This document shows, piece after piece, positions 1-61,687 of a DNA stretch of 64,000 nucleotides. Each line of letters opens with the position of its first letter. The first letter of the stretch is position 1. The notes under the pieces were generated by a model. It saw nothing but the letters and a program-made list of their open reading frames with translations. It searched no databases and had not been told where the DNA came from. A program made the position numbers and the translations under genes. Origin of the DNA: Nannocystis pusilla (GTDB lineage Bacteria; Myxococcota_A; Polyangia; Nannocystales; Nannocystaceae). The stretch lies in contig NZ_JAPNKE010000002.1 in assembly GCF_026626665.1 (NCBI RefSeq), positions 3,757,168 to 3,821,167 on the forward strand, given 5' to 3'.

Positions 1-123
1 TCGAGCACCATCGCCTGGTCGTCGACGAGAATCACTCGCGGTCGCATGCAACCATCCTTGAACACCGTACCCGATCGATCATGAAGTTCAAGCACGTGCC
101 CGCTCCTCGTGAGACATGGGGCC

Positions 124-741
124 TCAGCGACCCGGAAGCAACCCGTGTTCGACCGCGTAGCGCGTCAGCTCGGCGACGGTGCGCAGGCCCAGCACTCGCA
201 TGAGTCGCGCCTTGTGAAACTCGACCGTCTTGCGCGAGATGCCGAGGATGTCGCCGATCTCGCGAGCCGGTCGGCCCTCCGCGACCAGCTGCAGCACCTC
301 GCGCTGGCGCGTCGACAACTCGCCCCCCGCCAGCCCCTCTTCGAGCGCGCCGGGCCGCGGGTCGTAGACCAGCCCCGGCGACACGAACGTGCCGCCGGCC
401 AGCACCCGACGCACTGCCAGCACCAGCTCCGACGACGCGGCCGTCTTCACCACGTAGCCGTGGGCCCCGGCGCGAAACGCCTCCTGCACGTAATCCGGCT
501 CGGCGTGGACGGTGACGAAGATGATCCGCCCCCGCGGACACACTCGCTGCAGCTGACGCGCCGCGTCGAAGCCGTTGAGCAGCGGCATCGTCACGTCGAC
601 GAGCACCACGTCGGGTTGACATTGTTCGGCCGCGGTGACGAGCGCGCGGCCGTCGGCCACCGCCCCCACGATCTCGAGCTCGGCCGCCAGCAAGCGCATC
701 AGGCCCTCGCGGACCAGGGTGTGGTCGTCGGCCAACAACAC
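124..741 (-). CDS. NarL/FixJ-family two-component response regulator (REC + LuxR-type HTH)
   Basis: Track ORF 124..870. The REC motif RVLLADDH opens the domain, followed by the C-terminal LuxR HTH (REIGDILGISRKTVEFHKARLMRVLG). A GTG 43 codons into the track ORF gives a typical ~206-aa protein. Confidence 0.8.
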   Translation of the reverse strand: MLLADDHTLVREGLMRLLAAELEIVGAVADGRALVTAAEQCQPDVVLVDVTMPLLNGFDAARQLQRVCPRGRIIFVTVHAEPDYVQEAFRAGAHGYVVKTAASSELVLAVRRVLAGGTFVSPGLVYDPRPGALEEGLAGGELSTRQREVLQLVAEGRPAREIGDILGISRKTVEFHKARLMRVLGLRTVAELTRYAVEHGLLPGR

Positions 742-909
742 CCGCGGACGCGCCCGTGAGGGCGATATGTCCGCGCCGACCTCCGCCTGACTGGATGCGT
801 CCTCGTTCACCCCAGCTCCGAAGGCGTCGCTGGCCCGGACGTTAACAAACACCTCGATCTCGTTCAGCACGGAAAAACCCCTGACATCGAGCTCGCTTCG
901 TGGACTGGC

Positions 910-1263
910 TCAGTGGCGCCGCTCGTCGCGCGGATCGCCCGCCCGGCAGACGAGGGACGCACTGCAGTTCCTGGCAGGATCCGACGCGTCCTCGCCGTCG
1001 GACTCGGCGCGGACGACCCTCGATCGTTCGAGGAGTCCGCATGCACCGGGGCGATGATAGCCGCCGAACGTCGCGACGCTCGCGACGCCGACCCGGTCCC
1101 CGGTGTGCTCGACGTCGACGAACTCACCCGCCTCGTCCGACTTCGAGCCGCCCCCGAACTCGTCGACGCCGCAAATGCGCGCCCCGCCGCAAGCGCCGCC
1201 TGGAGTGAGCACAAAGGTGATGTCGCCGCCCACGCTCGCGCTCGACGATCTCGGCCCATCCAT
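910..1263 (-). CDS. hypothetical small Gly-rich protein
   Basis: Track ORF of 117 aa with high GC3 over its first ~70 codons. No recognisable family; overlapping ORFs in other frames look like noise. Confidence 0.25.
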   Translation of the reverse strand: MDGPRSSSASVGGDITFVLTPGGACGGARICGVDEFGGGSKSDEAGEFVDVEHTGDRVGVASVATFGGYHRPGACGLLERSRVVRAESDGEDASDPARNCSASLVCRAGDPRDERRH

Positions 1264-1809
1264 GGAGGAGGCGCCCGAATCGCGGGACTCGCGATCGCCC
1301 GCCGCGACGACCGCGCCCCCGAGGGATTTTCCAGGGGGACCCTGCCGTGCGGACTCGACAGGGAGCGCTGCGGCGCGCGGGCCGAATGGACATTCGCGCC
1401 GCGAGCCCCCCGCGGGCCTTGCGCCGATTTTCCCGGCTCGTGCTCGCTTCCTGCGGACTCGGGGCCTGTAGGGCAGTAGCGAATTCGCGCATCGTCGTCC
1501 GGCCTACCTTGGTCGGATCGGTCGGGGCGGCAACCGCTCGGTGCCGTGCGAAAGGGGAATGGGCGGCGCCTTCCCCGGCGGAGGCCGACCTTGAGCAATT
1601 CATCACAGCCCTCGTTTTCCGGGGTTCTTCCCAGACGGGGCGCGATTCGCGGCTGGCGAGGCGAGCGCACCGACGCCCGCCGCTCGAGCGCGCCGCGGAC
1701 CCATTGCCCCGAGTGCCTCGCCGGCCCGCGTCGATGAAATCACGCCGCCTTGCATCCCGCGCGCCCTCTCCCAAGATTCCGCCGCAGTCGTCGGCCTCGC
1801 GAGCTCTCG

Positions 1810-2345
1810 GGACTATGCATACCCGCTGCGGAGCAGGCAGGCACAGGCCGACGACTGCGAGCGACGAACCGCCGCGAGCCCACCGCAGACCTCGGCCGCG
1901 AGACGATGCAGTCGCTTCATGGAAGTCACACCGGAATAGCGACGGCTACCCGGGGCCCACATCCCCTGCGGAGCGAGCCGGCGACGGCCCGCCCGCGAGT
2001 CCACCGCAGACCTCGGCCGCGAGGCGATGCCCACATCCCCTGCGGAGCGAGCCGGCGAAGGCCGGCCCGCGAGTCCACCGCAGACCTCGGCCGCGAGGCG
2101 ATGCCCATATTTCCTGCGGAGCGAGCCGGCGAAGGCCCGCGAGCCCCCGCTGCGACGGAACCACGCGCACCGCTGCAGAGCGAGCCGCCGCAGGCCGACG
2201 ACTGCCGGCAAGGAGCCGTCCCCCGACGCGGCAGCACGATTCTCACGCCTCACGCGATCGTGCACGGACCCGCTGCGAGCGAGCGGCCGACGACCGACGA
2301 TTGCGAGCGACGAGTCGCCGCGGCCGGCCGACCTCGACCTGCTCG
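1810..2345. repeat. degenerate tandem repeat array, unit ~74 bp (core ...CTGCGGAGCGAGCCGGCG...CCACCGCAGACCTCGGCCGCGAGGCGATGC)
   Basis: Direct reading shows 5-6 head-to-tail copies. The two central copies are near-identical and the outer copies diverge progressively. The region is intergenic and is covered by many short ORFs in all frames. Confidence 0.7.
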
Positions 2346-2647
2346 AAAGACCAGGTGAGAGCCCACCGCTCCCGACGCGCCGCCATGAAAAACGCGGAAC
2401 TTCGATCGCCGTCCGCCGAGATCCGAGCACCCCTGCGCTCCTCCTCGCCGCCGCGAAGCGCCGAGCCGAGCCCGGAAAACCCCCAGTCCCCGGCTCCCCC
2501 CACCGCCCATCGGACCCATTATCAAACTGTCCCAAAGTACAGGCGCTCCTCGATCGCGCCTCGCGCATCACCGACGGCCGCGACCCGAAGAGCCATTCCG
2601 CCGGCGCTCGCACATGCGTCTCGCCGCAATCTCGCCGCAGACGAACA

Positions 2648-3598
2648 ATGATTCGTCCGACCCGCGACTTGCGACCTCCCGCGCTCCCGGACACGCTGGT
2701 CTTCAGCGCCGTCATGACCCCCGCCCGCTCCCCGGCTGTTTCTCCGCGCGCGCTGGCACCGGCGGGACGGGACCGTCCCCTCGACGCGCTGCCCGTCTCG
2801 CGCCTCCCGTCCACCAGCCCGGCCGTCCGCTGCTTCGAGCTGCGCGCCGACCTGTGGCGCGCGCTGCTCGGTCAGCCCGCAGCGCTCGCCTCGATCGCCG
2901 AGCTCGCGCACCGGGCCCTGCACCCCGAACTGCGCCCCGACGGCCCCCTGCGGCGCCTCGAAGCCGCCGCCCGGGACCTCGGCCGCAACGACGACCTCGG
3001 CGCGCGCCTGGCCTACGAAGCCGCGCGTCGGGCCGCCTCCGAGGCGCTGGGGCCCGCCGATCCCGACCGCTGTGTGGTCCGCCGCCTCGTCGGCGACATC
3101 CTCGCCCGTCGCTCGGTCCCTGTCGCCGAGCCCACCCTCGGCCGCTGGTGCGACATCCTGGAGCGGCGCCAGGCGGCCCTGGACGCCGCCCTGAACCTCC
3201 TGCGCGCCCGCGACGAGCAGATCGGCCGCCTCGTCCGCGCCCTGCGGCCGCCCGGGCGCGGCTGCGCCGAGCTGGTCGTCGCCGCTAGCCAGGGGCTGCA
3301 GTGGGCCGTGGGGCGCTACGATCCCCGCCGCGGCGTCCGCTTCGACCGCTTCGCCGAGTGGTGGATCCGGCACATGATCCGCCGCCACCTCGCGCCGCCG
3401 CCGGCGCCCGGCCCTCGCCCGCGAGCCGAACTCCGCAGCACCTGCGCGCAATTCACCACCCTCCACGGACGGCCCCCGACCGAGGAGGAACTGATGGCAT
3501 TGACGGGCGAACCGCTGGAGCAGGTCCGCCTTGCCCGGGCGCTCGACTCGCACCATCGCTACGCCCGCGACAGAGACATCGACCCCGCGCCCCCATGA
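2648..3598 (+). CDS. sigma-70 family-like protein with regions 2 and 3 only (no region 4)
   Basis: The C-terminal half holds a canonical sigma-70 region 2 motif (GRYDPRRGVRFDRFAEWWIRHMIRRHL) and a region-3-like segment. The ORF stops before any region 4 HTH. An ATG (MIRPTRDL) lies 207 codons into track ORF 2027..3598. Confidence 0.55.
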   Translation: MIRPTRDLRPPALPDTLVFSAVMTPARSPAVSPRALAPAGRDRPLDALPVSRLPSTSPAVRCFELRADLWRALLGQPAALASIAELAHRALHPELRPDGPLRRLEAAARDLGRNDDLGARLAYEAARRAASEALGPADPDRCVVRRLVGDILARRSVPVAEPTLGRWCDILERRQAALDAALNLLRARDEQIGRLVRALRPPGRGCAELVVAASQGLQWAVGRYDPRRGVRFDRFAEWWIRHMIRRHLAPPPAPGPRPRAELRSTCAQFTTLHGRPPTEEELMALTGEPLEQVRLARALDSHHRYARDRDIDPAPP

Positions 3599-4154
3599 CG
3601 CCGCCACCGGTCGTGCCATCGGGACGCGCACGAGAAAGGAACCGACCATGCGCTCCCTTCGAACCTCCCCCTCCGGCTCGGCCTCGCCAGCCTGATCGCG
3701 CTCGCGGCCTGCGGCGACCGCACCAAAGAGCCTCCGCCGGCCAGCCGCAATCAACCGCCGGGGGCCCGGCGCCGACCGACACCCGCACCAACCCTCATCC
3801 CACGGCCCAGCCCGCGAACAGCGGCACCCCCGGGCCCTCCGCCGGCGCCGCCAACCCGAGCAACGTCCACACCCCCGATCCCGGCCACGAGCCGCCCGGC
3901 GGGGCCCGGGCGCCGCCTCGCCCGACAAGCCCGCCGGCGAGCCCGCCCCGACCCCGAGCCAGCCCCATTAGCAGCCCGCCGTTCGCGGGCCCACGCGGCC
4001 GGCCCACGCCTGAGCGCGTCGGCCGGCCGAGTCGCGACACGCGAGCGCCGCAGCGCGAGCACCCTCGTCGGCACGCCGCGCGGCCTCGCCGTCTGCGACG
4101 AATCACGGCCCGGCGGCCCCCGCATTCTCATCGCCGCCCCTGATGCCGGGCTCG

Positions 4155-4530
4155 GACGTATCACCGGTCTCCGCCCCGCACTTCGGTGGGACGCGCATTC
4201 TCGTCACCGCCCCCACGCCGCCCCCGCGATCGGACGAATCGCCGGTCTCCACCCCGCACTTCGGGTGGGACGCGCATTCTCGTCACCGTCCCCACGCCAC
4301 CCCCGCGATCGGACGAATCGCCGGTCTCCACCCCGCACTTCGGGTGAGACGCGCATTCTCGTCACCGTCCCCACGCCACCCCCGCGATCGGACGAATCGC
4401 CGGTCTCCACCCCGCACTTCGGGTGAGACGCGTATTCTCGTCACCGTCCCCACGCCACCCCCGCGATCGGACGAATCGCCGGTCTCCGCTTCGAGTTTGG
4501 CGGGACGCGCATTCATATCACCGGCAGCCG
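4155..4530. repeat. tandem repeat array, 81-bp unit x ~4.5 copies, ~95% identity
   Basis: The unit GAATCGCCGGTCTCCACCCCGCACTTCGGGTGAGACGCGCATTCTCGTCACCGTCCCCACGCCACCCCCGCGATCGGAC repeats head-to-tail. Each unit contains a short imperfect hairpin (CACCCCGCACTTCGGGTG). Confidence 0.85.
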
Positions 4531-4951
4531 AATCACCGCCCGGAGGCTGCAGCCCGACGCTTTGCCCCCTCGCCTCGCGCCCCTCCTTGGCCGCGCGCGA
4601 CCTTCGGCGCACCTCCGGCGATCGCTGCAGTGGACCACCGCGAGGAGCCGACGCGGCAGCGGCCATTCGTCTCCGTCGTCTCTATCTTAAAAGCCAATGG
4701 ATTGTCCGAGGTCGCGTCCTGCGCGCGAAGCTCGACCGTGCTCGCAGTGACCTTCGTCGTCGCGCTCGCAGCGGCGGGCTCTTCCGGCTCGCTTCGCCGC
4801 GGCTTGGTCCCATCGAGCGATCGACCGCCGCTGCGCGCGACCGCGTCGTCGTTCGGTCGCCGTCTCTTGCCCATGCAACAAATCCGCGCACCCTCGTTCC
4901 AGGCCGCCGGGTCGGCATCGCCGAGCTCGGGGCGGCCGGAGGAGCGTCATC

Positions 4952-5462
4952 ATGGCCTCGATCTTCCAGCACCTGCGCGAGGAGCACGAGCGGCTCCGGC
5001 GCTCGATCGTCCGCCTCCGCGGCGTCGAGCCCGGGGCGGACCGACTGCAGCCCTTCAACCAGCTGCGCCGCCAGTACGTCGCCTACGCGCGCCGCCGCCG
5101 GCGTCCTCTACAGCTACCTGATCCACGTCAAGACCACCCAGCAGCGGGCCCTCCAGGGCCTCGAAGAGCACAAGCGCCTCGAAGTGCGCCTCCTCGACGC
5201 CGAGCGCGCCCTCGCCGACGACGACCATTGGCGCCCCACGATCGCCTCGCTGTGCGAGGAGCTGGCCCGGCACCTGCACGACGAGGAGCGCAGCCTCTTC
5301 TCGACGGCGAGGGTCGCGCTCAGCGATCGCGAGGCCACCGGCCTCGGCGCCTGCTTCGCGGCCGAGCGCGCCCGCTTGCACGGCGATCTCAGCAACCTGA
5401 CCGGCGGCCCCTCCGAGCCCCTCGCATCCGCGACCGGGACCGGACGACTGCCGATCCAATGA
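4952..5462 (+). CDS. hemerythrin HHE cation-binding domain protein (apparent 1-nt frameshift ~5095)
   Basis: N-terminus MASIFQHLREEHERLRRSI... lies in the frame of ORF 4952. It continues ...VLYSYLIHVKTTQQRALQGLEEHKRLEV...HLHDEERSLFSTAR in the frame of ORF 4143..5462. The break falls in a GCCGCCGCCGG run. Confidence 0.6.
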
Positions 5463-5485
5463 CCCCAGCCCCGAGGAACACGACC

Positions 5486-6027
5486 ATGCCCAAGACCAAA
5501 TCCGGGACCCAGCCCGAGACCCAGCCCGAGATCTACGCCATCCTGAAGCGCGAACACGAGGAAGTGAGCGAGCTGCTGCACCAGCTCAAGGAGGCCAAGG
5601 GCAACGCCGCCCAGAGCTGTTCGCCGAGGTCCAGCTCAAGCTCGTGCCGCACTCGCGCGGCGAGGAGTCGACCGTCTATTCGCGGCTGCTGAACGAGAAG
5701 AGCGCCTCGGAGAAGATCCGCGTCAGCATCGAGGAGCACCGGCAGGTCGACGTCCTGCTCGAGGAGCTGGCCGACATGTCCCCGCGCGACGAGGAGTGGT
5801 CGGCGAAGGTCCACGTGCTCGCCGACATGGTCGGCCACCACGTCGACGAGGAGGAGGGCGAGCTGTTCCCGATGGCTCGCGCAGTGCTCTCCGCCCGCGA
5901 GGCCGCCCAGATCGCCGCGGAGTACGAGCAAGCCCGCGACGAGGCCATGCAAGCCATGATCGGCGAGTTCGAAGAGGCCGAAGAAGTCGAAGAAGTCGAA
6001 GGGGAGGAAGAGCGCGGCGCCGCATGA
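5486..6027 (+). CDS. hemerythrin HHE domain protein with acidic C-terminal tail (apparent 1-nt frameshift ~5613)
   Basis: N-terminus MPKTKSG...IYAILKREHEEVSELLHQLKE. Restoring one base gives ...AAQELFAEVQLKLVPHSRGEESTVYSRLL, which joins to ORF 5644..6027 (HRQVDVLLEEL...HHVDEEEGELFP). Confidence 0.6.
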
Positions 6028-6171
6028 CCGCGAGCGCTTGACCGCGCTCGCCCGACTCCCGCGCGGGCCCTCGCCACGAGCCCGCCGAGCCCTGCCGGGC
6101 GAGTCCTCGGCGGGGTGAACCTGTCCCCAAAGCCATTGACGACAGTCCGCGACCACGCGGACCCCGGTTGC

Positions 6172-6525
6172 TCACTCCCCGAACACGCACGACAGCCCGT
6201 CGCGCGACAGCAGCTCGCGCGACACCGATTGACCGGTCATCCACGTCAGCGTGACCGCGGCCACGCGCTCGTACGACCCGTCCTGCCACGGCCGCAGATC
6301 GGCTCCGTCGCGGTCGCGCGTCTCCACCGAGTACGTCGGCGCCCAGCCGGAATGGAACCAGTGATTCGCCCGGCACAGCGCCTCCGTCTCTTCCGTCGCC
6401 GTGCTGGCCGCCGCGATCGAGCGCGCCAGCAGAGCCACCACCGCGTACGGGTAGACGAAGTACGCCCCCGCCACGAGCCCGACGACGATGGCGATCACGA
6501 GCTTGCGGGCGCGCGGACGAGCCAT
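6172..6525 (-). CDS. hypothetical membrane-anchored protein
   Basis: MARPRARKLVIAIVVGLVAGAYFVYPYAVVALLA forms an N-terminal TM helix. GC3 is good. The ATG is the 23rd codon of track ORF 6172..6591. Confidence 0.5.
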   Translation of the reverse strand: MARPRARKLVIAIVVGLVAGAYFVYPYAVVALLARSIAAASTATEETEALCRANHWFHSGWAPTYSVETRDRDGADLRPWQDGSYERVAAVTLTWMTGQSVSRELLSRDGLSCVFGE

Positions 6526-6946
6526 GGGCGTCCAGTCTAGCACTGCGCCGCCGCGGCCTGGTGGTGCGCACGCCACTCGGCCGCGACGCACCAGCTCGCG
6601 TCCTCGTCACGGTGCCGTCTCGTCCGTGGAGCCGCGCCAGGGCCCGAGCGTGATACCCTGCCCGTCATGCTGATGACGGTGTCCTGCTCGCGCTGGTCCG
6701 ACGTCGACCCCGCCCGGCACGAGTTCGATCTCGAGCCGGCGCGGCGGATCGTCGGGCGCCTCTCGCCCGCCTGACCGCGGCAAGACCACGAATCACCGCA
6801 CCACCGCATTGCATGCGGTGCCCTCGATCGTCGCTACCCGCGAATGGGCCGAGACCGGCGCTCCAAAATGCGCGCGGACGATCGACGGATCGGTCGCATA
6901 TTTGACCTAGCAACATCGTCGATCGCGGCGGGTTATACGCCTCGTC

Positions 6947-8796
6947 ATGAACTGGACTCCTCTGCTGCTCCTCTCCCCTGTCGTGCTCGCTGCCTGTCCA
7001 GGCGGGTCGGTGGCGTCGACCGACACCGATCCGGCCGACACCAGCGGTCCGACGACCACGACTGTCGCCACCGATCCGTCGCCCCCGCCCACGACCACCG
7101 GCCCGGCCACCGAGACCGGCCCCGATCCCACCACCACGACGACGGGCGAAAACACCACCGCGGTCGATCCCACCACCGGCGATCCCACCATCGATCCCAC
7201 GACCCTCGACACCACCACGCTCGACACCACCACCGAAACCACGTCCACCACGTCCACCACGTCCACCACGTCCACCACCGACACCACCGATGGCACCGAC
7301 ACCGGCGTCGTCGGCGAATGTGTCCCCGGGGACATCCAGAGCTGTTACGGCGGGCCCGACGGCACCCTCGACGTCGGCGAGTGCGTCGCCGGGCAGCAGG
7401 AGTGCGGCCGCGACGAGACCTGGGGCCCCTGCCTCGGCGAGGTCGTGCCCGCGCCCGACACCTGCGACGAGCCGGGCGACGAGAGCTGCGACGGCCTCGA
7501 CCCGTGCCAGGGCGACGGCGAGTTCGCCTGGGGGCTCACCTTCGGCGAGGCCGGCGACGACGAGGGCGCGCGGGTCGTCTTCGACGGCGCCGGCAACGTC
7601 GTCGTCGCCGCGTGGGGCAACGGCGACATCGACTTCGGCGACGGCCCGCTCGTCCACGCCGGCTACGACGTCTTCCTCGCCAAGTTCGCGCCCGACGGCG
7701 CCATCCTGTGGAGCCAGCGCTTCGGCGACGGCGACTACCAGGGCGGCCCGGAATACGGCCTCGCCATCGCCGACGACGGCGACATCGTGCTCAGCGGCAT
7801 CTTCAACGGCGACATCGACTTCGGCGGCGGCCCGCTGCAAAACCCCACGCTCAAGACCGGCCTCTTCCTCGCGCGCCTCGACGGCGACGGCCAGCACGTG
7901 TGGAGCAAGTCCTTCATCGCCGGCGAGGACGTGACCCCCCTCGATCTGGCGCTCGACGCCGGCGGCAACATCCTGCTCACCGGCGCCTTCTACGGCACGC
8001 TCCCGCTCGGCGGCGCGCCGCTCGTCAGCGCCGGCGGCAACGACCTCTTCGTCGCCAAGTTCACCGGCGCCGGCGCCCACCTGTGGAGCCGCGGCTTCGG
8101 CGACCCCGAGTGGCAGGTCGGCATGGGCATCGCCCCCGACCCCGCGGGCAACATCTTCGTCAGCGGCGGCCTGCGCGGCAGCTTCGACCCCGGCACGGGC
8201 CCGCTCACCAGCGCCGGCTCCGAGGACATCTTCCTCATCAAGTTCGACCCGGCCGGCGCCACCCTGTGGGGCAAGCGCTGGGGCGACGCCGGCAGCCAGA
8301 ACGTCGGCAGCCTCGCGGTCGACAGCAAGGGCCGCGTCGCCCTCGCCGGCGGCACCAGCGGCGTCCTCGACTTCGGCGGCGGCCCGCTCCAGGGCAACAT
8401 CGTCGTCAGCTACCTCGCCCAGCTCGACGGCAACGGCGACCACCTGTGGAGCCGCGAGCTGTGCGAGGGCGGATCGATCGCCGAGAACGTCGCCGTCGAC
8501 GGCCTCGACAACCTCGTCACCATCGGCACCTTCCGCAACACCTGCGACCTCGGCAGCGGCCCCCTCACCGCCGTCGAGTACCGCGACGTGTTCGTCGCCA
8601 AGTTCAGCCCCGGCGGCCAGCCCGGGTGGAGCAAGCGCCTCGGCGGCCCGCAGGAGCAGTACGGGGCCCACGTCACCGCGTCCGCCGCCGGCTCCGTGGC
8701 CGCCGTCGGCAATTCTACAATGCCATCGACCTCGGCGAGGGCGCCCAGACCAGCCAGGGCGGCCGCGACGGCTTCGTCGTCGTCCTCGACCCGTAA
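6947..8796 (+). CDS. lipoprotein with Thr/Pro-rich linker, Cys-rich module and SBBP-type beta-propeller repeats (frameshift ~8712)
   Basis: Signal peptide plus lipobox (LAAC), then a long T/P-rich linker. Repeats of the form GxxxDxGxxVxxDxxGNxxxxG...DxFxAKFxxxGxxxWS match the SBBP beta-propeller repeat. The last ~30 aa (..NFYNAIDLGEGAQTSQGGRDGFVVVLDP) lie in the frame of ORF 6844..8796 after an AATT(T)CTAC homopolymer indel. Confidence 0.75.
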
Positions 8797-8800
8797 CCTC

Positions 8801-8965
8801 GAGAACATGCCTCATGGGACATGCCCGTTCAGCCATCGCCGGCGCCGGGGCGCCCTGAACCAAGGAGCGAGCATGTCCCAAAGGCCATGCGGCCCCCTGC
8901 GGCCGCCGTCCTCGAGCCTCGTCGCCATGTCCGCACGAGCATGTCCTCAAGGACATGCTCCGAGG
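8801..8965. repeat. array of GGACATGTCC-family palindromic motifs (>=5 degenerate copies) between convergent gene ends
   Basis: The motifs GGGACATGCCC, GAGCATGTCCC and GAGCATGTCCTCAAGGACATGCTCCGAG are read directly. They lie between the 3' ends of 6947..8796(+) and 8985..10292(-). Confidence 0.7.
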
Positions 8966-8984
8966 GCCAGCCCGTGGCCCGCCG

Positions 8985-10292
8985 TCACCGACGGTGGATC
9001 GCCCCGCCCTTCATCACGAAGCGGACCTGCCGCAGCGCCCCGATCGAGCGCGTCGGGTCGCCCTCGACGGCGACCAGGTCGGCGAGCAGCCCGACCTTGA
9101 CCTGGCCGATGCTGTCGGCCAGGTGCAGCATCTTCGCGTTCACCGCCGTGGCCGCGCGCAGCGCCTGGACCGGCTTCATCCCGTAGTCGACCATCAGCTC
9201 GAGCTCGCGGACGTTGTCGCCGTGGCTGAACACCCCGACGTCGCTGCCGTTGCAGATCGGCACCCCCGCCTTGAGGGCCGCGCGGAAGGTGGCTCGCTTG
9301 TCGCGGATCGCCTGCGGCTCCGGGGCCGCGCCCTTCTTCCACCCGGCGTACTGCTGGATCGCGTCGGTCGCCGCCAGCGTCGGGCAGTAGTACACCCCGC
9401 GCTTGGCCATCAGTTTGAGAATTTCGGGCGTCCCGCCGTCGCCGTGCTCGATCGTCTCGGCCCCGGCCAGCACCGCGCGGCGCATCCCCTCGGGCGTGCT
9501 CGCGTGGACCACCACCGGCCGTCGACCGTCGCGCGCGGTCGCCACGATCCGCTCCATCTCCGCCTGCGAGAACGTCGGCAGCGCCTGGCCTCTCGGGCCC
9601 CACGAGTAATCGCCGTACACCTTGATCCAGTCGGCCCCGCGGGCGATCTGGCCGCGCACCACCCGGATCAGATCCTCGCCGTCGGCCTCCTCCGCGCCCT
9701 GCGGCACGTGCCACTCCGGCGCGAAGCCCTTCGGCGCGTACGTCCCGGTGGCGACGATCGCCCGCGTCGTCGTCAGCACCCGCGGCCCCGGGATGATGCC
9801 CTGCTGGATCGCCTGCTTGAGGCCGACGTCGGCCTCGGCCGCGCCCTCCGTGCCGAGGTCGCGCACCGTCGTGAAGCCGGCCAGCAGCGTCTCGCGGGCG
9901 TGGTTCGTCGCCCTCGCCACGCGCACCGTCAGCGGCTCGCGCAGCACCTGGTCGTTCCACGTCGTCTCGTCGTAGGGGTGCAGCAGCAGGTGCGAGTGCC
10001 CCTCGATGAGCCCCGGCAGCAGCGTCGTGTTCGGCAGCTCGACCACCTCGGCGTCGGCCGGCGCGCCGACCTGCGCCGCCGGCCCGACCGCGGCGATGCG
10101 CTCGCCGCGGACCAGCACCACCCAGCCCTCGCGCGGCTGCTCGCTCGCGCCCTCGAACACCCGCGCCGGGCGCAGCAGGTACGCCTTGGCGGGCGCCGGC
10201 GCCGGCGGCGGCGCGGCCGCGGCGAGGTCGGGCTGTCCCCAGAGACATGTGACTGCGAGCGCGAGGACGGCGAGGGCGGCGAGGCGGCGCAT
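8985..10292 (-). CDS. secreted metal-dependent amidohydrolase (imidazolonepropionase/Xaa-Pro-dipeptidase-like superfamily)
   Basis: Signal peptide [19 protein letters not shown]. Motifs [11 protein letters not shown] (HxH metal site) and ...HASTPEG...[12 protein letters not shown] fit the amidohydrolase fold. Start is codon 98 of the track ORF. Confidence 0.8.
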
Positions 10293-44136: not shown

Positions 44137-44337
44137 TCAGCCCTCCGCCGCGCCCGGCCCTTCATGCTCCCAGCGCACGATCGGCCGCCCGTGCAGCGGC
44201 AGGCGCGTCCCGCGGTTCTCGCATTGCGGGCAGCGCAGCGCCTCCGGCGTCGGCATCGGCGCGCACGCGCTGCCGCGGCCGGCGGTCACCTGCACTTCGG
44301 GACAGCCGCACCGCGGGCACCTCGGCGCCTCGCTCAC
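44137..44337 (-). CDS. 66-aa zinc-ribbon protein (CPRCGC...CPQCE), translationally coupled to rSAM/SPASM gene
   Basis: The GTG start overlaps the TGA stop of the upstream gene (GTGA). GC3 is high. Two CxxC pairs lie 30 residues apart. Confidence 0.6.
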   Translation of the reverse strand: MSEAPRCPRCGCPEVQVTAGRGSACAPMPTPEALRCPQCENRGTRLPLHGRPIVRWEHEGPGAAEG

Positions 44338-45287
44338 GGCGACCCCGAGCGCTTGCGCAGGCGCTCGCGCAGCTCGGCCGGCACCGACTCGTGGCGCCGT
44401 GGGTCGGACAGCGGGCGCACCAGGTCCTCCGGCGCGATCAGCCACGGCGGCTCGGGCACCTCGTCGAGCTCGTAGAACCCGCCGCAGAAGCACGCGTGCG
44501 GGCACGACGCGCACACCGGCTTGCGGACCCGGCGCTCGGCCAGGTACTGCGCCAGGTTGACCGTCTCGTTGTTGACGAACGCCATGTGGCGCTCGAGCTT
44601 GCCGAGGTCGCCCTGCATCAGCGCCTCGTGGCCCGGCATGAAGCAGAACGGCAGGTTGATGATCTGCAGCTTCATCCGCGCCTGCCAGGCGTCGATCACC
44701 GCGCTCAGGGCCGCCGCCGCGCGGGCCGTGTCGGGTGCCAGCATCGCGGTCGCCCGCCCGAACGGCGTCAGAATTGATAGTTCACCCAGCGCAGCCCGAG
44801 CGACCACGCCAGCGCCGTGATGTCCGCCAGCTGCCCCTCGTTGTGCTTCGTGATCGTCACGTTGAGGCCGAGCTCGACCCCGCGCGGGGCCAGGCGGACC
44901 GCGTTGCGCACCCCCGCCAGCGTCTGCTCGAAGGCCTCCGCGACCCCGACGTTCTGCGCGTGCGTGCGGGCGTCGGCCCCGTGCACGCTGAACAGCAGCG
45001 ACGACAGCCCCGAGTTGACCAGGCGGGCCGCGAACGCCTCGTACGCGCACAGCCGGCCGTTCGTCGTCACGTTGATCGCCCGGTAGCCGAGCGCGCGCGT
45101 GGCGAATCAAGCCCAGCAGGTCCGGGTGCAGCGTCGGCTCGCCGCCGTCGATGTCGAGCAGCTCCACCCCTTGCTTGCGGTAGTGCGCCAGCTGCTCGCG
45201 CAGGCGCTCGCCGTCGCCGTGGAGCTGCGTGCGCGTGCCCACCGCGCAGAAGCTGCAGTGGTTGTTGCACGCGTAGGTCGCGTTCAT
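44334..45287 (-). CDS. radical SAM/SPASM-domain protein (GrrM/3-residue-cyclophane-forming-enzyme-like candidate), two apparent frameshifts (~45085, ~44775)
   Basis: CNNHCSFC is the CxxxCxxC rSAM cluster. The middle segment (...LGYRAINVTTNGRLCAYEAFAAR...GADARTH...) lies in the frame of ORF 44768..45070. The C-terminal SPASM motif is CASCPHACFCGG. Confidence 0.75.
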   Translation of the reverse strand: MNATYACNNHCSFCAVGTRTQLHGDGERLREQLAHYRKQGVELLDIDGGEPTLHPDLLGLIRHARARLPGDQRDDERPAVRVRGVRGPPGQLGAVVAAVQRARGRRPHARAERRGRGGLRADAGGGAQRGPPGPARGRARPQRDDHEAQRGAAGGHHGAGVVARAALGELSILTPFGRATAMLAPDTARAAAALSAVIDAWQARMKLQIINLPFCFMPGHEALMQGDLGKLERHMAFVNNETVNLAQYLAERRVRKPVCASCPHACFCGGFYELDEVPEPPWLIAPEDLVRPLSDPRRHESVPAELRERLRKRSGSP

Positions 45288-46799
45288 CACCAGCTTGCGC
45301 GGCCCCTGCGACGCGCGCACCCGCTGCTCGAACGTCCAGCGGAACTTCTCCAGCAGCTCGGCCGGCACCGTCGCCCCGGTCGGCGCCCGCTGGAACCGCG
45401 GCCCCCAGTCGCCGTCCTCCGGCGGCGGCGCCAGCGGCAGCGACCGGGCCAGCCGCGTGCCCGGCAGCGGCGTCGCGAACTGCACCGCCGGCCACGCCTT
45501 GAACCTGTCCCACAGATCCAGCGCGAAGCTCAGCGTCTGATTGATCTCCGCCGCCGACTCGCCCGGCTGACCGATGATGTAGTGGATCATCAGCGGCACG
45601 CCGGCCGCCGCCGCCGACTCCGCCGCGCGCACGATCGCCGCCAGGTCGAGCCGCTTGCCGACCACCTCGTCGACCACCCGCTGCGATCCGCTCTCGGCGC
45701 TGACGCTGAGCGTCGTGATCCGCCCGCGCATCGCCTGCAGGTGCCGCGGCTCGAGGTAATCGGCGCGCAGCCCGTTCGGCAGCTCGAAGCGCAGGCCCAG
45801 CGCCTGGATGTCCCCCAGGACATGATCGAAGTGCGCCGGGTGGACGTTGATCAGCTCGTCGAGCACGAACACCCGCTCGGCCCCGTGCTCGCGCGCCAGC
45901 GCCGTCAACAGCTGCGCCAGCGACGTCCGCGAGTGCCGCCGCTGCGTCTTCGGCCGGCCCGCCGCCACGTCCGGGTTCGAGCTGCAGTGCGCGCACTGGA
46001 ACGGGCACCCGCGGCTCGTCACCGCCGGCAGCGTGCGGCCGTCGATCGGGAACGCCCAGCCGCCGCGGCCGAGCCCGCGGACCACCGCCGCGCGGAACTC
46101 GTGGTGCGCCTCGAGGTCGACTTTGGACCATGCCGGAACGGGCAGGTCCTCGAGGACAGGTTGCTCCCCGCGGTGGAGCCCGCGCGGCGCCGGCCCGCCG
46201 GTCAAGTACGCCTGCAGCAGCGCCGGCACCGTCACCTCGGCCTCGAACTGCACGTACGCGTCGGCCTCCGGGTAGCTGGCGAGCAGCTGCGGCGCCGCCA
46301 CGTAGTGCTGCCCCGACTGGTAGCAGTCGGCCAGCACGATCGGCACCGCCGCCCCGTGGCGCGCCCGCAGCCCGGCGAGGAGGTCGGCGAGGAGGTCGTC
46401 GCGCGCCGGCGGCCGGTGGAACGGCGTGACCGCCACCACGATCGCCACGGCCGAGCCTGGGCACGCCGCCAGAGTCGCCGCGACCGTCGCCCCCAGGTGC
46501 GCCCGCCCGTCGCTGCGCCACGTCATTCCCGACGCCGCGTGACGCACCTCGCCCGGCGAGTCGTCCGCCTCGTTCGCGCCTCGCAGCCCGCTCGCCCGCC
46601 CGTCCGCCGCGTCTACGCCCCGCGGCGTCGTCAGCCTCGCCGGCAGCGCGTACGCGTCGACCAGGTCGCACTCGATCCCTCGCGCCTCGAGCACCGCTGC
46701 CAGCTGCACCGCCCCGAGGTCGACGAAGTACGGGTAGTCGATGAAGTCCCGCGCCACCGACACGGGCGGATGGACGACGAGGACGCGGCCGGGGCGCAC
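45288..46799 (-). CDS. B12-binding-domain radical SAM protein
   Basis: An N-terminal B12-binding domain (RVLVVHPPVS...DLVDAYAL) precedes an rSAM core with CPFQCAHCS. A GTG start at ~46799 is in frame. No stop separates it from the downstream rSAM/SPASM gene, so the 3' boundary is uncertain. Confidence 0.7.
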
Positions 46800-46857
46800 G
46801 GCCGGCGACGTTAGCACGCTTGCGGCCTGCGCGGGGCGCCGGGTACATTGCCCCGGA

Positions 46858-57053: not shown

Positions 57054-58884
57054 TCAGCGCAGGCGGTGCTCGAGCCGCTGCGCGGTGTCCTCGAGGACCG
57101 CGCGGTGCTCGGCCGGCACGAACTCGATCTGGCGGCGCAGGTACGGCAGGAGCTCCGAGTTGGGCAGCTCGCTGATGGCGGTGCTGGCGACCTTGACGAA
57201 CGGCTGCTCGCCCTCGCGGAGGCGGTCGCACAGGAAGTCGAGCGCCTCGACGCTGCCGATCTTGCCGATCGCAGTCAGCGCAGCCTTGCGGGCCGCCTCC
57301 GGGTCGGGCAGGTCGCGGGCCTCGAAGATCCGGCGCAGCGGCTCGAACGCGTGGGGGAACACCAGCCGCTCGACCGAGGCCGCCGCGGCCTTGCGGACCG
57401 GCGCGCTCGGGTCGCGCAACGCCTGCGACACCAGGCCGAAGCTGCGCTTGAAGCGGAGCGCCCCCATCGCCGCCGCCACCGACTCGCGCAGCGACGCGTC
57501 GCCGTGGCGGTACATCGCCTCGAGGCCGGCGATCACCGGGTAGGCGCGGACCACCGCCAGGCTCTTCACGATCTCGAGCGGCGGCACCGCCTGCCCGCGG
57601 CGCTCGAGCTCGAGCACCAGCAGCAGCGCGTGGCGGCGCACGTAGTCGGGGAAGCGGCGGTCGGCCATCACGCCGGCGGCCACCAGGGCCGGGTCGCCGC
57701 CGAGCTCCCACTCGGCCAGGTCGACGTACCAGACCTCCTCGTAGTCGGCGCTGGCGCAGGAACTCGGGTACCGGCATCGGCCGCGGCGCGTCCTGGGGCC
57801 CGTCGCCGAGGCGACGGATCAGCCGCAGCGCGCGCTCGCGGTTCTTGGCCGGCAGGTCGAGCGTGGTGATCTTGCGGTACGACTCGGCGACCTGGCGGAA
57901 CGCCCGCACCGACGCGAACGCCTCGGCCGCGGCCAGGCACGCGTTCTCGATGATCTGCGGCGGGTGGCCGGCGGCCAGCGCCTCGGTCGCCGCCTTGATC
58001 CACGCCTCCGCGCTGCGCCAGCGCAGGTCGTCGGCGTACGGCAGGCCCGAGCGGGTGCAGTAGTCGGCGGCCTCGCGCAGGATCGACGCCACCGCGTGGA
58101 ACTCGCCGGCCTCGCGGGCCATGGCGATGAACGTCTCGTACAGGCGCAGCGCGTCGAGCTTGAGCCCGTCGTCGCGGAGGATCCGGACGCTGTTGAGGTA
58201 GCCCTCGGCCACGTTCTCGAACGCCCGCGTCTCCGAGCCGAGGCGGGCGATCAGCTGGTAGCAGTCGAACGCGCGCTCGCGCAGGCCCTCGCTCTCGAAC
58301 GCGTCGGCGACCTCCTCGACGCTGGTGGTCGCGTCGGCGATCGCCTGCCGCGCGCGCTCGTGGCCGAGGCGGCGCAGGCACAGCGCGTAGTTGATCTTCA
58401 TCAGCGCGCGCTCGTAGTCGCGGTCGACCAGCGCGTCGCCGGCCAGCATGCGGGCCCACAGCTGCGACGCGGCCGCGTCGTCGCCCGCGCGCTCGAGCGC
58501 GATCGCCCGGTGCACCGGCATCCCGCCGAGCTCGAACCACGAGGCCGCCGGGCGGTGCTGGCCCGCGCGCGACAGATAGATCGCGTACAGGCGCACCGTG
58601 CGGATCGCGTCGGCGTCGCCGGCCTGGGCCCGCTGCGCGTACAGCCGCATGATGTCGGGCCCCGGCATCTCGCGCGCGCCGAGGTACGACAGGCAGGCCA
58701 TGCCCTCGCCCCAGTTGCCGGTCGCGCGCAGCGAGTCGACGTAGGCGCGCAGCCACTCCTCGTACTCGAAGTCGATGCGGTCGACCACCTGGACCAGTTG
58801 GCGCAGGTAGATCTGGGCGTCGGCGTGGCGGCCGGCCCGCAGCGCCCCCTCGGCGCGGATCCACAGCACGTTGGTGTCGATCAC
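57054..58884 (-). CDS. TPR/HEAT-repeat protein, last gene of MoxR-vWA operon (frameshift ~57745)
   Basis: The N-terminal ~380 aa (TPR-like helices) lie in the frame of ORF 56713..60822 and the C-terminal ~230 aa (HEAT-like) in the frame of ORF 57054..57683. The GTG start overlaps the vWA stop (GTGA). Confidence 0.6.
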
Positions 58885-60494
58885 CGCCGCCTCCGCCCCT
58901 GTCCCTTCAACCCTGTCCCGACGGACATGGTCTTCGGGGCACCCGTCTTGCGCCGGGTCGGCTGGGCCTGGCGATGGCCGGCCTCGACGTCGCTGATGAT
59001 CTGGCGGGCGCGCTGGGCCCGGCGGCCGTGGCTTATCGCCTGGTCGTCGATCACGTGCACGCGGTAGAACAGGTCGAGGTAGCCGAGGTCGAGCACGCCC
59101 GAGCTCGGCAGGATGAACACCCCGTAGATCGGCGCGCGCGCGGCCAGGGCGGCGACGTCGTCGGGCGGCAGCTGGCACTCGCCGTGGGTCAGCAGGTAGA
59201 CCAGCACCTTGCCGCCGCCGCCCCCGCCCGAGCGGCGCGGGGCCGACAGCTCGGCGTTGATCTGGCGGATCACGCGGGCGTAGTTGCGGCCGTGCTCGGC
59301 GCGGAACTGCAGCACGTAGGGCACCTCGGCGTGGCCCTGCGCGCCGACCTTGACGCCCTCGTACAGGCGGCTGTCGAAGAAGCGCAGGATCACGTGCTCG
59401 CCGAGCAGCGCCAGCCGCTTGCACAGCGCCAGCGCCAGGCCGCGGGCGAACACCTCCCGCACCCCGCGCATCGACGCCGAGCCGTCGACCAGCACGTAGT
59501 GGGTGCGGTGCTCGTTCTCGACCTGCTTCTCGTGGGTAAAGTAGAACAGCTCGTCGTCGATGAACTTCTGTTCGAAGATGTCTTCGTCGTAGGCGAGCTG
59601 CGACAGCTCGAGGTCGTCGACCCCGCCGAAGCGCTCGATCGACGCGTAGCCGTCGATCGAGAACACCTGCTGGCCGGCCTCGCGCTTGACCTCGAGGATC
59701 GACGGCAGCAGCTCCATCGAGAAGTCGATCACGTCGGCCAGCGCCGGGCTGACCATCACGTTGTAGAGGTCGGCCAGGTCGACGCCCGCGGCCGCCTCGC
59801 CGGGCCCGCCGCGGAACAGGCCGAACAGGCGCAGCGCGTCGACGTCGATCTGCTCGACCGCCAGCAGCGGCAGGAGCCGATGCGTCGTCAGCGTCTGCAG
59901 CCACGCGATCGTCTGCCGCTGGTCGTAGCGGGTGTACGCCGAGCTCGGCTCGACCTTCGCGTAGTGGACCGCGTCGACCGGCAGCTCGATCGGCCGCAGC
60001 ACCCGCACGTCGTCGGGCAGCTGCGGGACCACCGGCGCGAACACCCGCGCCAGGACCACGCCGATCATCTGGTCGCGGTGCTTCCAGCCGGCCTGCGCGC
60101 GCACCAGGTCGCTCTCGCCGAGCTCGACGAGCAGCCCACGCCAGGCCTCGCACAGCTCCGACTCGGCGATGCCCTTGACCACCGGGCCGGGGCCGCCCAG
60201 GCCCGTGATGAGACAGCCGAGGTCGTGCAGGATCACCAGCGGCACGGCCACGCCGAGGCGCGCCAGGATCCCCTGCCACACCAGCGCGCGCATCATCGCC
60301 AGCGCGCCGGCGCCGTCGATCTGCGACAGCGCCAGGCTGCCGACCTGGCGCTCGAGCTCGGCCACGTTGGGCGTCACCCGCGGCGCCTGGGCCTGGCCGC
60401 CCGCGGCGGGCCGCGACGTCCGCGGCGCCGGTGGCTGAGGCGGGGCCGCGCGCGGCGGCGGGGGCTTGCGGACGTCGGCCATGGAGGCGGGCAC
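58881..60494 (-). CDS. von Willebrand factor A (vWA) domain protein
   Basis: The MIDAS motif HYVLVDGSASM is present. Length 537 aa. The gene lies directly downstream of the MoxR ATPase. Confidence 0.8.
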   Translation of the reverse strand: MPASMADVRKPPPPRAAPPQPPAPRTSRPAAGGQAQAPRVTPNVAELERQVGSLALSQIDGAGALAMMRALVWQGILARLGVAVPLVILHDLGCLITGLGGPGPVVKGIAESELCEAWRGLLVELGESDLVRAQAGWKHRDQMIGVVLARVFAPVVPQLPDDVRVLRPIELPVDAVHYAKVEPSSAYTRYDQRQTIAWLQTLTTHRLLPLLAVEQIDVDALRLFGLFRGGPGEAAAGVDLADLYNVMVSPALADVIDFSMELLPSILEVKREAGQQVFSIDGYASIERFGGVDDLELSQLAYDEDIFEQKFIDDELFYFTHEKQVENEHRTHYVLVDGSASMRGVREVFARGLALALCKRLALLGEHVILRFFDSRLYEGVKVGAQGHAEVPYVLQFRAEHGRNYARVIRQINAELSAPRRSGGGGGGKVLVYLLTHGECQLPPDDVAALAARAPIYGVFILPSSGVLDLGYLDLFYRVHVIDDQAISHGRRAQRARQIISDVEAGHRQAQPTRRKTGAPKTMSVGTGLKGQGRRRR

Positions 60495-60497
60495 CTC

Positions 60498-61685
60498 TTA
60501 CGCGAAGCGGCTCGACGCGAACATCGTCTCCAGCAGCTTGTCGACCTCGCCGACCATGCGCTGGGCCGTCGGGCTGTCCTGCATGCGCAGCAGCGCCGCC
60601 TTGATGTCGCCGAGGTTGCGCAGCTGGCTGAACAGCTGCATGTCCGACAGCACCTGGCTGCCGGTGAGCGTCTCGCGGATGACCCGCAGCTCCTCGAGCA
60701 GGTCCTGCAGGCTCGTCGGCGTCGCGCCGATCCGGCCGTGGTCCGGGTGCGACTCGTACCAGCGGTCGAGCACCGGGCCGACGATCTCCTGGAGAATCTC
60801 CTCCTGCTCCGGCGTGTTCCACACGTGGCGGAGGATGAACAGGTCGGCGTCGGTCACGTGGTCGCGGCCGTCGAACAGCGCCGAGTTGGCGAACACCTTG
60901 AGCAGCTTGACCACGCGGCGGTCGGACAGGCCGATGCCCTCCGAGCGGATCTGGAACACCATGCCCTTGAAGGTGGTGAGGAACTCCTCGCTCATCTTCA
61001 CGTGCGAGCCGAAGTCGCGCTGGATCGTCAGCAGCTCGGCCGCGGTCGCCACCTTGCGCCCGACCTGCTGGTCGGCCATCTGCTGCACCTCGAGCTGGAT
61101 GCCCTTCTGCAGCAGGCCGCGGAAGTGATAGCTGTCGAGGTAGTCGCAGCGCACGCGCAGCAGGAAGCGGTCGAAGATGGCCGACAGCGCCTCGTCGGTC
61201 GGCACCTCGTTGCTCGCCGCGAAGAGGCTGATGAGCGGCACCCGCACCGTGCTCGTGCCGTGGGTGAAGCGGCGCGCGTTGACCAGCGTGAGCAGGCTGT
61301 TCAAGATGGCGTTGTTGGCCTTGAAGATCTCGTCGAGGAACACGACCTCGGCCTCGGGCAGCATCTTCTCGATGCGCCGGCGGTACGTGCCCTGGCGGAA
61401 CGCCTGGATGTCGACCGGCCCGAAGATCTCGTTGGGCTCGGTGAAGCGGGTCAGCAGGTAGTCGAAGAAGCGGGCGTCGATCACCTGCGCGAACGCGCGG
61501 ACGATCGCGCTCTTGGCGGTGCCGGGCGGCCCGACCATCACCATGTGTTCGCCGGCCAGGGCCGAGATGAAGAGGAGGCGGATGATCTCCTCCTTGCCGA
61601 GGAACTGCTGCTCGAGCTGGCGCGCCCCGTCCTGCAGGCGGCGGGCGAGGTCGCTGATCGAGAAGGTGGCCGGGGTGGTGCTCAT
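60498..61685 (-). CDS. MoxR-family AAA+ ATPase
   Basis: Walker A GPPGTAKS, Walker B VVFLDEIFKAN and sensor motifs are present. The ATG is at MSTTPATF. Confidence 0.85.
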   Translation of the reverse strand: MSTTPATFSISDLARRLQDGARQLEQQFLGKEEIIRLLFISALAGEHMVMVGPPGTAKSAIVRAFAQVIDARFFDYLLTRFTEPNEIFGPVDIQAFRQGTYRRRIEKMLPEAEVVFLDEIFKANNAILNSLLTLVNARRFTHGTSTVRVPLISLFAASNEVPTDEALSAIFDRFLLRVRCDYLDSYHFRGLLQKGIQLEVQQMADQQVGRKVATAAELLTIQRDFGSHVKMSEEFLTTFKGMVFQIRSEGIGLSDRRVVKLLKVFANSALFDGRDHVTDADLFILRHVWNTPEQEEILQEIVGPVLDRWYESHPDHGRIGATPTSLQDLLEELRVIRETLTGSQVLSDMQLFSQLRNLGDIKAALLRMQDSPTAQRMVGEVDKLLETMFASSRFA

Positions 61686-61687
61686 GG

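Follow-up and report, generated by a model that had tools for sequence, protein, structure and literature searches.

A strain-variable 79-bp minisatellite between a lipoprotein gene and a hemerythrin operon in Nannocystis pusilla

Among the tandem repeats described in bacteria, the exact tandem repeats and the mycobacterial interspersed repetitive unit-variable number tandem repeat (MIRU-VNTR) loci of Mycobacterium tuberculosis consist of intergenic units of about 50-100 bp in a high-GC genome. The antitoxin arrays of type III toxin-antitoxin systems are built from repeats of about 34-45 nt that immediately precede a ToxN/AbiQ-type toxin gene, from which a terminator separates them, and the 23-50-nt repeats of clustered regularly interspaced short palindromic repeats (CRISPR) are parted by unique spacers of similar length. 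A search of the literature for intergenic tandem repeats of Nannocystis or of myxobacteria in general found nothing relevant. Here we describe a tandem array in a 64,000-nucleotide stretch of the genome of Nannocystis pusilla (contig NZ_JAPNKE010000002.1, positions 3,757,168 to 3,821,167), which we refer to as the window and in which position 1 is the first nucleotide. The context of the array is chromosomal (the contig is 11.9 Mb long) and it lies between a small lipoprotein gene and a hemerythrin operon. We conclude that it is a genuine, recently expanded, strain-variable, locus-specific, non-coding minisatellite, or VNTR: its copies, of a length within the range of ~10-100+ bp typical of such loci, stand head-to-tail and are of high identity, their number differs between strains at one and the same locus, and they do not encode protein.

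Tandem Repeats Finder (TRF) locates the array at 4152-4487 with a period of 79, 4.3 copies, 96% matches, 0% indels and a score of 609, the highest of any tandem repeat within the window. An in-register cut combined with blastn-short yields start-to-start spacings of 78, 79, 79 and 79 and resolves a series of + strand units, the centre of which is formed by three amplified 79-nt copies, U2 (4230..4308), U3 (4309..4387), which serves as the reference copy, and U4 (4388..4466). These three (4230-4466) are mutually 98.7-100% identical, U2 being 98.7% identical to U3 and U4 carrying a single C>T difference (GCGTATTC). To their left lies an older unit of 78 nt, U1 (4152..4229), which matches U3 at 91% identity, has a 1-nt gap within a run of G and is colinear with the orthologous sequence of another N. 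pusilla locus, L026. The leftmost unit, U0 (~4097-4137), is degenerate, reading GACGAATCACGG ... CGCATTCTCATCGCCG without the central hairpin; a hidden Markov model (HMM) of the unit family matches it weakly at 4097-4137 (E 0.23), and the motif CGCATTCTCATCGCCG matches 4121-4136 with one mismatch. On the right, U5 (4467..4524) is chimeric, since its first 21 nt are identical to those of U2-U4 and the rest diverges: a different small palindrome or hairpin (CCGCTTCGAGTTTGGCGG) takes the place of the central hairpin, and after it GACGCGCATTC alone is kept. Two other loci have the orthologue of the 3' part of U5 in their terminal degenerate unit (L031 5583-5650 and L088 6740-6800). An initial inspection of the letters, the sequence-only reading, had described a near-perfect 81-bp repeat of 4.5 copies; the array is real and sits where it was placed, but its period is 79 and near-perfect identity holds for U2-U4 only.

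The imperfect hairpin that the same reading had seen inside each unit is present in U2-U4 as CACCC-N8-GGGTG. In U2 this + strand palindrome, CACCC-CGCACTTC-GGGTG, occupies 4250..4267, and it recurs in U3 and U4, where, as in U2, it belongs to a longer imperfect hairpin of the form GACGA..GC..GTCTC.ACCC/GGGT.GAGAC..GC..TCGTC. Two conserved sub-motifs of the unit, GACGAATCRCCGG and CGCATTCTCRTCACCG, are found five to six times in the array, where chance would give 0.2-0.7 matches over the entire window; no shuffle out of 100 attained these numbers, which shows that the array is not a product of chance. A plot of GC content at third codon positions (GC3) gives no coding signal over ~4000-4900, and the open reading frame (ORF) that reads through the array, 4143..5462, translates every unit in a different frame. 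Since 79 is not divisible by three, GC3 gives no signal and the frame shifts from unit to unit, the array is non-coding and, as had been supposed, intergenic; a coding repeat is further ruled out by the periods of 76-79 found in other strains.

To follow the unit beyond the window, a profile was made from the window units, iterated with nhmmer on the orthologous spacers and then run over 196,622 nt of Nannocystis DNA, comprising the 64-kb window (~0.5% of the ~12-Mb source genome) and 133 kb of related loci. All significant matches were confined to a single spacer, on the + strand, and the search for the unit elsewhere in the genome, which the sequence-only reading had proposed as a check, found no copy outside this spacer in either part of that DNA. 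The number of units in the orthologous spacers differs from strain to strain: beyond the window and L089, a strain has either 1-2 full units accompanied by several partial or degenerate ones, or none. The window contains 5-6, and RBIL2 (L088) and ILAH1 (L091) contain four each, namely two good units side by side at a distance of 77 nt, together with partial ones. Nine matches, six of them at E<=0.01, were obtained in N. pusilla L031, which includes a 76-bp array of 2.0 copies with 82% identity by TRF. Three units were found in L092 and two each in N. pusilla L026 and L089 (one good and one weak), and none in L032, L090, N. exedens and N. punicea. This range of 0-9 units per spacer confirms the suspicion that copy number varies between strains, and the distance between two fixed anchors in the spacer extends from 530 to 2216 bp across loci. 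Near-identical copies of the unit were seen in the window only. The closest strain, L089, differs from the window at 4 of 511 positions in the first hemerythrin gene and at 5 of 315 in the lipoprotein gene; as this strain, with genes ~98-99% identical, has one good unit and a weak one, the high identity of U2-U4 reflects a recent expansion, in agreement with what had been read from the letters.

The closeness of L089 in its genes does not extend to the repeats. Positions 4122-4615 of the window align to just 241 bp of L089 at ~73% identity, and the unit core of the window is 85-87% identical to that of RBIL2 and ILAH1 and 65% identical to that of L089 (window 4152-4524 compared with L089 6399-6640 and L088 6539-6669). 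This discordance between the unit core and its flanks suggests that the core of the spacer was replaced by recombination or has long been polymorphic. In the two unit-less loci L032 (2266-3750) and L090 (6410-7894) the spacer is filled by an inserted minus-strand gene of 494 aa and lower GC, and the spacer of L092 holds a minus-strand gene for a 163-aa Polyketide_cyc2/SRPBCC protein (2212-2703). The orthologous spacer of N. exedens (L027 11442-11697) contains an unrelated 108-bp array of 2.4 copies with 96% identity; no homology between the N. pusilla unit and this 108-bp unit is detectable by the family HMM, the shared short CATCAC-like strings having been noticed by eye only. The N. exedens array contains a perfect palindrome, GCGAGCGCTCGC. 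The spacer is a hotspot for duplication, deletion and gene insertion.

The composition of the amplified copies bears directly on their origin. Over their first 21 nt, U2-U4 coincide exactly with U5 and show two differences from U1, whereas the remaining 58 nt track U1, with four differences, and not U5. The amplified unit is a hybrid that joins the 5' end of its right neighbour to the 3' part of its left neighbour. From these junctions we infer a mechanism of recombination or slippage. Old, degenerate head-to-tail hairpin units of ~76-79 bp would have been present in the spacer of all strains of the N. pusilla group that did not acquire another gene there, and in the strain of the window two adjacent, diverged units would have mis-paired, either in unequal homologous recombination or in replication slippage. 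The product of the exchange would be an arrangement of the form left unit, then 5' of right joined to 3' of left, then right unit, and further rounds would have amplified the hybrid to three near-identical copies. The two-unit relatives L088, L092 and L031 plausibly represent the ancestral state. In L031 and L088 the orthologue of the 3' half of U5 is the terminal degenerate unit, so that a deletion also took place.

The best explanation, and one that we consider probable, is that the array is neutral spacer DNA, a locus-specific minisatellite that arose by unequal recombination or slippage. It would act as variable spacer DNA only, each copy adding 79 bp of C-rich, hairpin-prone sequence between the end of the upstream operon and the hemerythrin control region, and it probably has no sequence-specific function. 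The units are dispensable, for L032 and L090 lack them and carry the 494-aa gene instead, yet retain the conserved block upstream of the hemerythrin genes. BLAST against plasmids and phages found no similarity to the array, a scan of GTDB genomes with the unit pattern gave 25 single matches in unrelated phyla, which is about the chance expectation, and the same type of scan over the viral contigs of IMG/VR gave none. In the JGI metagenomes a strict 30-mer had no match, and a 21-mer had 54 single matches, none of which extended past the pattern under the unit HMM.

Folding analyses gave results close to those of shuffled sequence. A single unit folds into an extended imperfect hairpin of -24.7 kcal/mol with z = -0.8 relative to shuffles, and the whole array gives z = -0.05 when read on the + strand and +1.83 when read on the - strand. 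Over 13 diverged units from seven loci, 80.0% of the hairpin cells are paired compared with 78.5% in shuffles (32/500), and covariation over the 13 units is 0.204 compared with 0.172, a value reached by 14 of 500 shuffles, which is weak and not significant by the calibration of the tool. A scan of positions 1-9000 with cmscan and Rfam 15 at E<=10 returned sub-threshold noise from microRNA models only, with no match within U1-U5; one such sub-threshold match, at 4080-4117, touches the degenerate U0 only. The structured-RNA reading, both of the unit and of the leader of the hemerythrin operon, was rejected for want of support (RNAalifold covariation term +2.76).

Several observations weigh against the reading as a neutral, locus-specific minisatellite. 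The core GAATC(A/G)CCG survives in badly degenerated units, always on the + strand, and occurs three to six times per 470-1400 nt in the seven unit-bearing spacers, compared with ~1e-4 per position elsewhere; this may be a sign of constraint and not of common descent. On its + strand the spacer is markedly rich in C, with a C/G ratio of 1.5-1.9, and the same is true of the non-homologous spacer of N. exedens, which would suit a Rho-utilisation zone. The ~80% of hairpin cells that are paired across the diverged units include three pairs with double changes. Independent arrays of high identity have arisen in this spacer in two species, which could be the outcome of selection for repeats and not of a mutational hotspot. 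Finally, the scan reached 64 kb of a source genome of ~12 Mb, so that a dispersed family is possible.

Of the functional alternatives, the one that fares best, although we regard it as unlikely, is that the array forms a transcription insulator or terminator zone in which every unit contributes, on the + strand RNA, a GC-rich hairpin and behind it a tract rich in C and poor in G. Such a zone would stop read-through from the operon of the sigma-like and lipoprotein genes into the hemerythrin control region, by Rho-dependent termination and/or hairpin pausing, with copy number tuning its efficiency. The base composition is in keeping with this idea, the C/G ratio being 1.89 in the unit and 1.54 in the whole spacer against 1.19 in the window, and 1.64 in the spacer of N. 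exedens; however, the spacer of N. punicea has a ratio of 1.00 and hence no C bias. Several pairs of the hairpin are U.G on the + strand, where the - strand would have C.A mismatches, but the hairpins are no more stable than those of shuffled sequence. The position is suitable too, as a + strand operon ends just before the array and the stop codon of the lipoprotein gene is followed by two palindromes. Against this, neither sigma-70-type promoters nor intrinsic terminators were found in the spacer of three strains, no terminators with a U-tract being among its features, and strains with 0-1 units exist.

A broader proposal, which we think quite unlikely, is that the units are functional C-rich hairpin cassettes with a GAATC(A/G)CCG core that make up a copy-number-tunable insulator or a regulator-binding platform separating the operon of the sigma-like and lipoprotein genes from the hemerythrin (redox/O2-sensing) operon, in effect a contingency-type locus in a myxobacterium. 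If it were true, gain and loss of units by recombination would give heritably different set-points among Nannocystis strains, and the arrays in the N. exedens spacer and in two other spacers of the locus would reflect selection for repetitiveness.

It is very unlikely that the array serves specifically as a protein-binding platform, in which the recurring GACGAATC(A/G)CCGG and CGCATTCTC(A/G)TCACCG would be candidate sites for a local regulator, such as the two NarL/LuxR-type response regulators or the sigma-region-2 protein, and the array would activate the hemerythrin operon from upstream or titrate its regulator. In all strains the two motifs are what is best preserved in diverged and degenerate units; a CheB/CheR-PAS histidine kinase, two LuxR-type response regulators and the sigma-like protein are encoded in the conserved surroundings, and the array lies ~200 bp upstream of the conserved hemerythrin leader. 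However, outside the units neither the 64-kb window nor the rest of the loci contains these motifs, GACGAATCRCCGG and CGCATTCTCRTCACCG likewise having no copy elsewhere in the window, and the motifs are absent from N. exedens and N. punicea despite the conservation there of the regulators and the hemerythrins. The spacing of 79 bp corresponds to 7.5 helical turns, which would place successive sites out of phase, and we know of no NarL-family site that resembles any part of the unit. A regulatory or binding-site array had been among the suggestions of the sequence-only reading; it finds no backing in the lack of promoter or terminator consensus, in the confinement of the motifs, or in L032 and L090, where the hemerythrin block is kept without units.

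We give an equally low probability to an artefact of assembly in which a real tandem pair was inflated by mis-assembly of error-prone long reads into three near-identical copies. The suspicion is a natural one in this assembly, in which systematic deletions of 1-2 nt in homopolymer and dinucleotide runs, evident from comparison with the near-identical L089, break many genes and leave the annotated hemerythrin as a 92-aa fragment. Yet an array of 340 bp is far below the length of a long read, making collapse or expansion unlikely, U2, U3 and U4 can be told apart by specific substitutions, and tandem pairs of this unit are found in the independent assemblies of L088, L091, L092 and L031. The deletions cause frameshifts in the lipoprotein gene (3666, 3764 and 3904), hemerythrin-1 (2 nt, at ~5085) and hemerythrin-2 (5614), and the GC3-based map shows many genes split across consecutive frames, for example at 44337-46841 and 57057-63894 on the - strand. 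These run-length deletions relative to L089 imply that the apparent pseudogenes around the array are artefacts of assembly and not biology, and under-calling of homopolymers means that the true unit is possibly 1-2 nt longer than 79. Users of this assembly should be aware that its homopolymers are under-called and that many of its apparent pseudogenes are artefactual.

The weakest of the alternatives, a tandem small-RNA array in which each unit is, or is processed into, a hairpin RNA of ~79 nt, as had been entertained from the letters, is highly improbable, for although the unit length and internal hairpin are compatible with it and most diverged units keep the hairpin in place (80% of cells paired), we found no Rfam match at E<=10, no folding beyond that of shuffles on either strand, no significant covariation and no promoter or terminator signature per unit, and copy number runs from 0 to 9 with the sequence diverging at about the rate of the neutral flanks.

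The genes around the minisatellite are arranged in an order shared by ten Nannocystis loci, drawn both from cultured strains and from metagenomes: a CheB/CheR-PAS protein, a HisKA_3 kinase, two LuxR-type response regulators (one of which is at 124-870 in the window), a long non-coding stretch, a sigma-region-2 gene, the lipoprotein gene, the spacer and two hemerythrin-domain genes. The sigma-like gene (2714..3598, + strand) encodes a protein of 294 aa with sigma-70 region 2 only; it is intact and identical to N. pusilla P0016 (OV079_16515). The sole Pfam match of this protein, to Sigma70_r2, has an E-value of 5e-5 and a score of 23.4 bits, below the cut-off of 24 bits. Its homologues are 91% identical in N. 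pusilla, 80% in N. exedens and 66% in N. punicea, and the family is almost restricted to Nannocystis, with one distant match of 37% besides. A search with tblastn for a remnant of a Cu/Zn superoxide dismutase upstream of the sigma-like gene in the window gave no match. The sigma-like gene is always succeeded by the gene for a small Pro-rich lipoprotein-like product, which in the window lies at 3649..3971 (+ strand), where it is broken by 1-nt homopolymer deletions; its orthologues, of 104-108 aa, are intact in L026, L088, L089 and L032. This lipoprotein gene is the true left neighbour of the array. The sequence-only reading had placed the array between a truncated sigma-like gene and a hemerythrin gene, of which the hemerythrin stands, but the sigma-like gene is not the immediate neighbour and is of full length in comparison with its orthologues. 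To the right are hemerythrin-like gene 1 (4952..5462, + strand), which is frameshifted by the 2-nt deletion and of which the annotated 92-aa fragment, P0022 (OV079_16520), is identical to the window, and hemerythrin-domain gene 2 (5487-6027), which carries the frameshift at 5614.

Alignment of the loci delimits an ungapped non-coding block of ~255 nt at 4697..4951 (+ strand), directly upstream of the ATG of hemerythrin-1, that is strongly conserved in all ten loci, including those of N. exedens and N. punicea and of the repeat-less strains. A core of 28 nt within it (GTCCGAGGTCGCGTCCTGCGCGCGAAGC) is almost invariant. A minus-strand ORF across this region, MGKRRRP...SDNPL (from 4874 down to ~4695), has been annotated as a gene in two loci, L032 and L089, and we rejected it as coding because its variable columns are distributed over the codon positions as 19/23/19, with no excess at the third; among 1.8 billion representatives it has no homologue outside Nannocystis, the sole match being the Nannocystis call itself. 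The block is probably a non-coding leader or operator, and RNAalifold gave no covariation support for an RNA structure in it. Between the array and this block, positions 4615-4665 and 4680-4696 comprise a conserved element whose palindromes overlap (GGCGATCGCTGCAGCG ... GCCGACGCGGCAGC) and, after it, an A/T-rich patch that varies greatly in length, being short in the window and ~40-50 nt long in L026, L088 and L032. The hemerythrin promoter may lie here, although the search for a sigma-70 consensus found none.

Intergenic arrays are unusually frequent throughout the locus, which is generally repeat-prone. A second non-coding array in the window, at 1955-2140 upstream of the sigma-like gene, has a 74-bp unit in 2.5 copies of 94% identity, with a partial copy at 1872-1909, and sits in a non-coding stretch of ~1.8 kb; the same 74-bp unit is present in 2.1 copies in L089 (4260-4413). 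The gap upstream of the sigma-like gene holds other arrays in L026 (9360-9707), L031 (2880-3107) and L088 (4441-4614, 86 bp in two copies of 100% identity). A third array, which falls outside the window, lies between the convergent histidine-kinase and response-regulator genes and consists of 3.7-6.7 copies of 44-52-bp units with the hairpin CCGCTCGCCGAGAGCGG (L088 1678-1880, L089 1533-1838 and L031 52-223).

If the array is indeed a neutral minisatellite, it offers a ready-made VNTR marker for the typing of strains of the N. pusilla group. Because the hybrid unit is preserved, it would also be a clear example of the birth of a bacterial minisatellite from older degenerate repeats by unequal exchange, and it flags the spacer as a hotspot of recombination and insertion. 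It would bear on gene regulation in myxobacteria only if copy number modulates read-through or the expression of the hemerythrin genes.

Compared with the known classes of repeat, the array lacks the features that define CRISPR, repetitive extragenic palindromic (REP) sequences and bacterial interspersed mosaic elements (BIME), type III antitoxin arrays, iterons, Rfam families and structured RNA elements. Like CRISPR, it is made of repeated short units with an internal palindrome, but its units abut, with a period that equals their own length of 79 nt, and the called neighbours include no cas genes; the sequence-only reading had rightly set CRISPR aside on account of the missing spacers. It differs from iterons and other replication-control repeats in that no rep gene is among its neighbours, its location is chromosomal and it has no similarity to plasmids or phages. 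With the ToxI-like arrays of type III toxin-antitoxin systems and with tandem small-RNA clusters it shares direct repeats of a short non-coding unit upstream of protein genes; however, compared with ToxI-like repeats, the Nannocystis unit, at 79 nt, has about double the length, the genes that follow encode hemerythrin domains and not a ToxN-type endoribonuclease, and there is no framing by promoter and terminator, no Rfam match and no structural support. The REP and BIME sequences of enterobacteria resemble it in having an imperfect palindrome per unit and in forming an extragenic array downstream of an operon, but they are alternating and dispersed, whereas the Nannocystis units are all direct repeats on the + strand at one locus, with no RAYT-type transposase in the neighbourhood. 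The likeness to the VNTR loci of M. tuberculosis goes further. Although MIRU form a dispersed family at dozens of loci and the Nannocystis unit was found in one spacer only in the ~197 kb scanned, without overlap with the flanking ORFs, the 79-bp unit is, like those of M. tuberculosis, an intergenic, non-coding direct repeat of a high-GC genome, with high identity between copies, a copy number that varies between strains and a plausible origin in slippage or unequal recombination. By analogy, then, the closest counterparts of this array are the intergenic VNTR loci of other high-GC bacteria.

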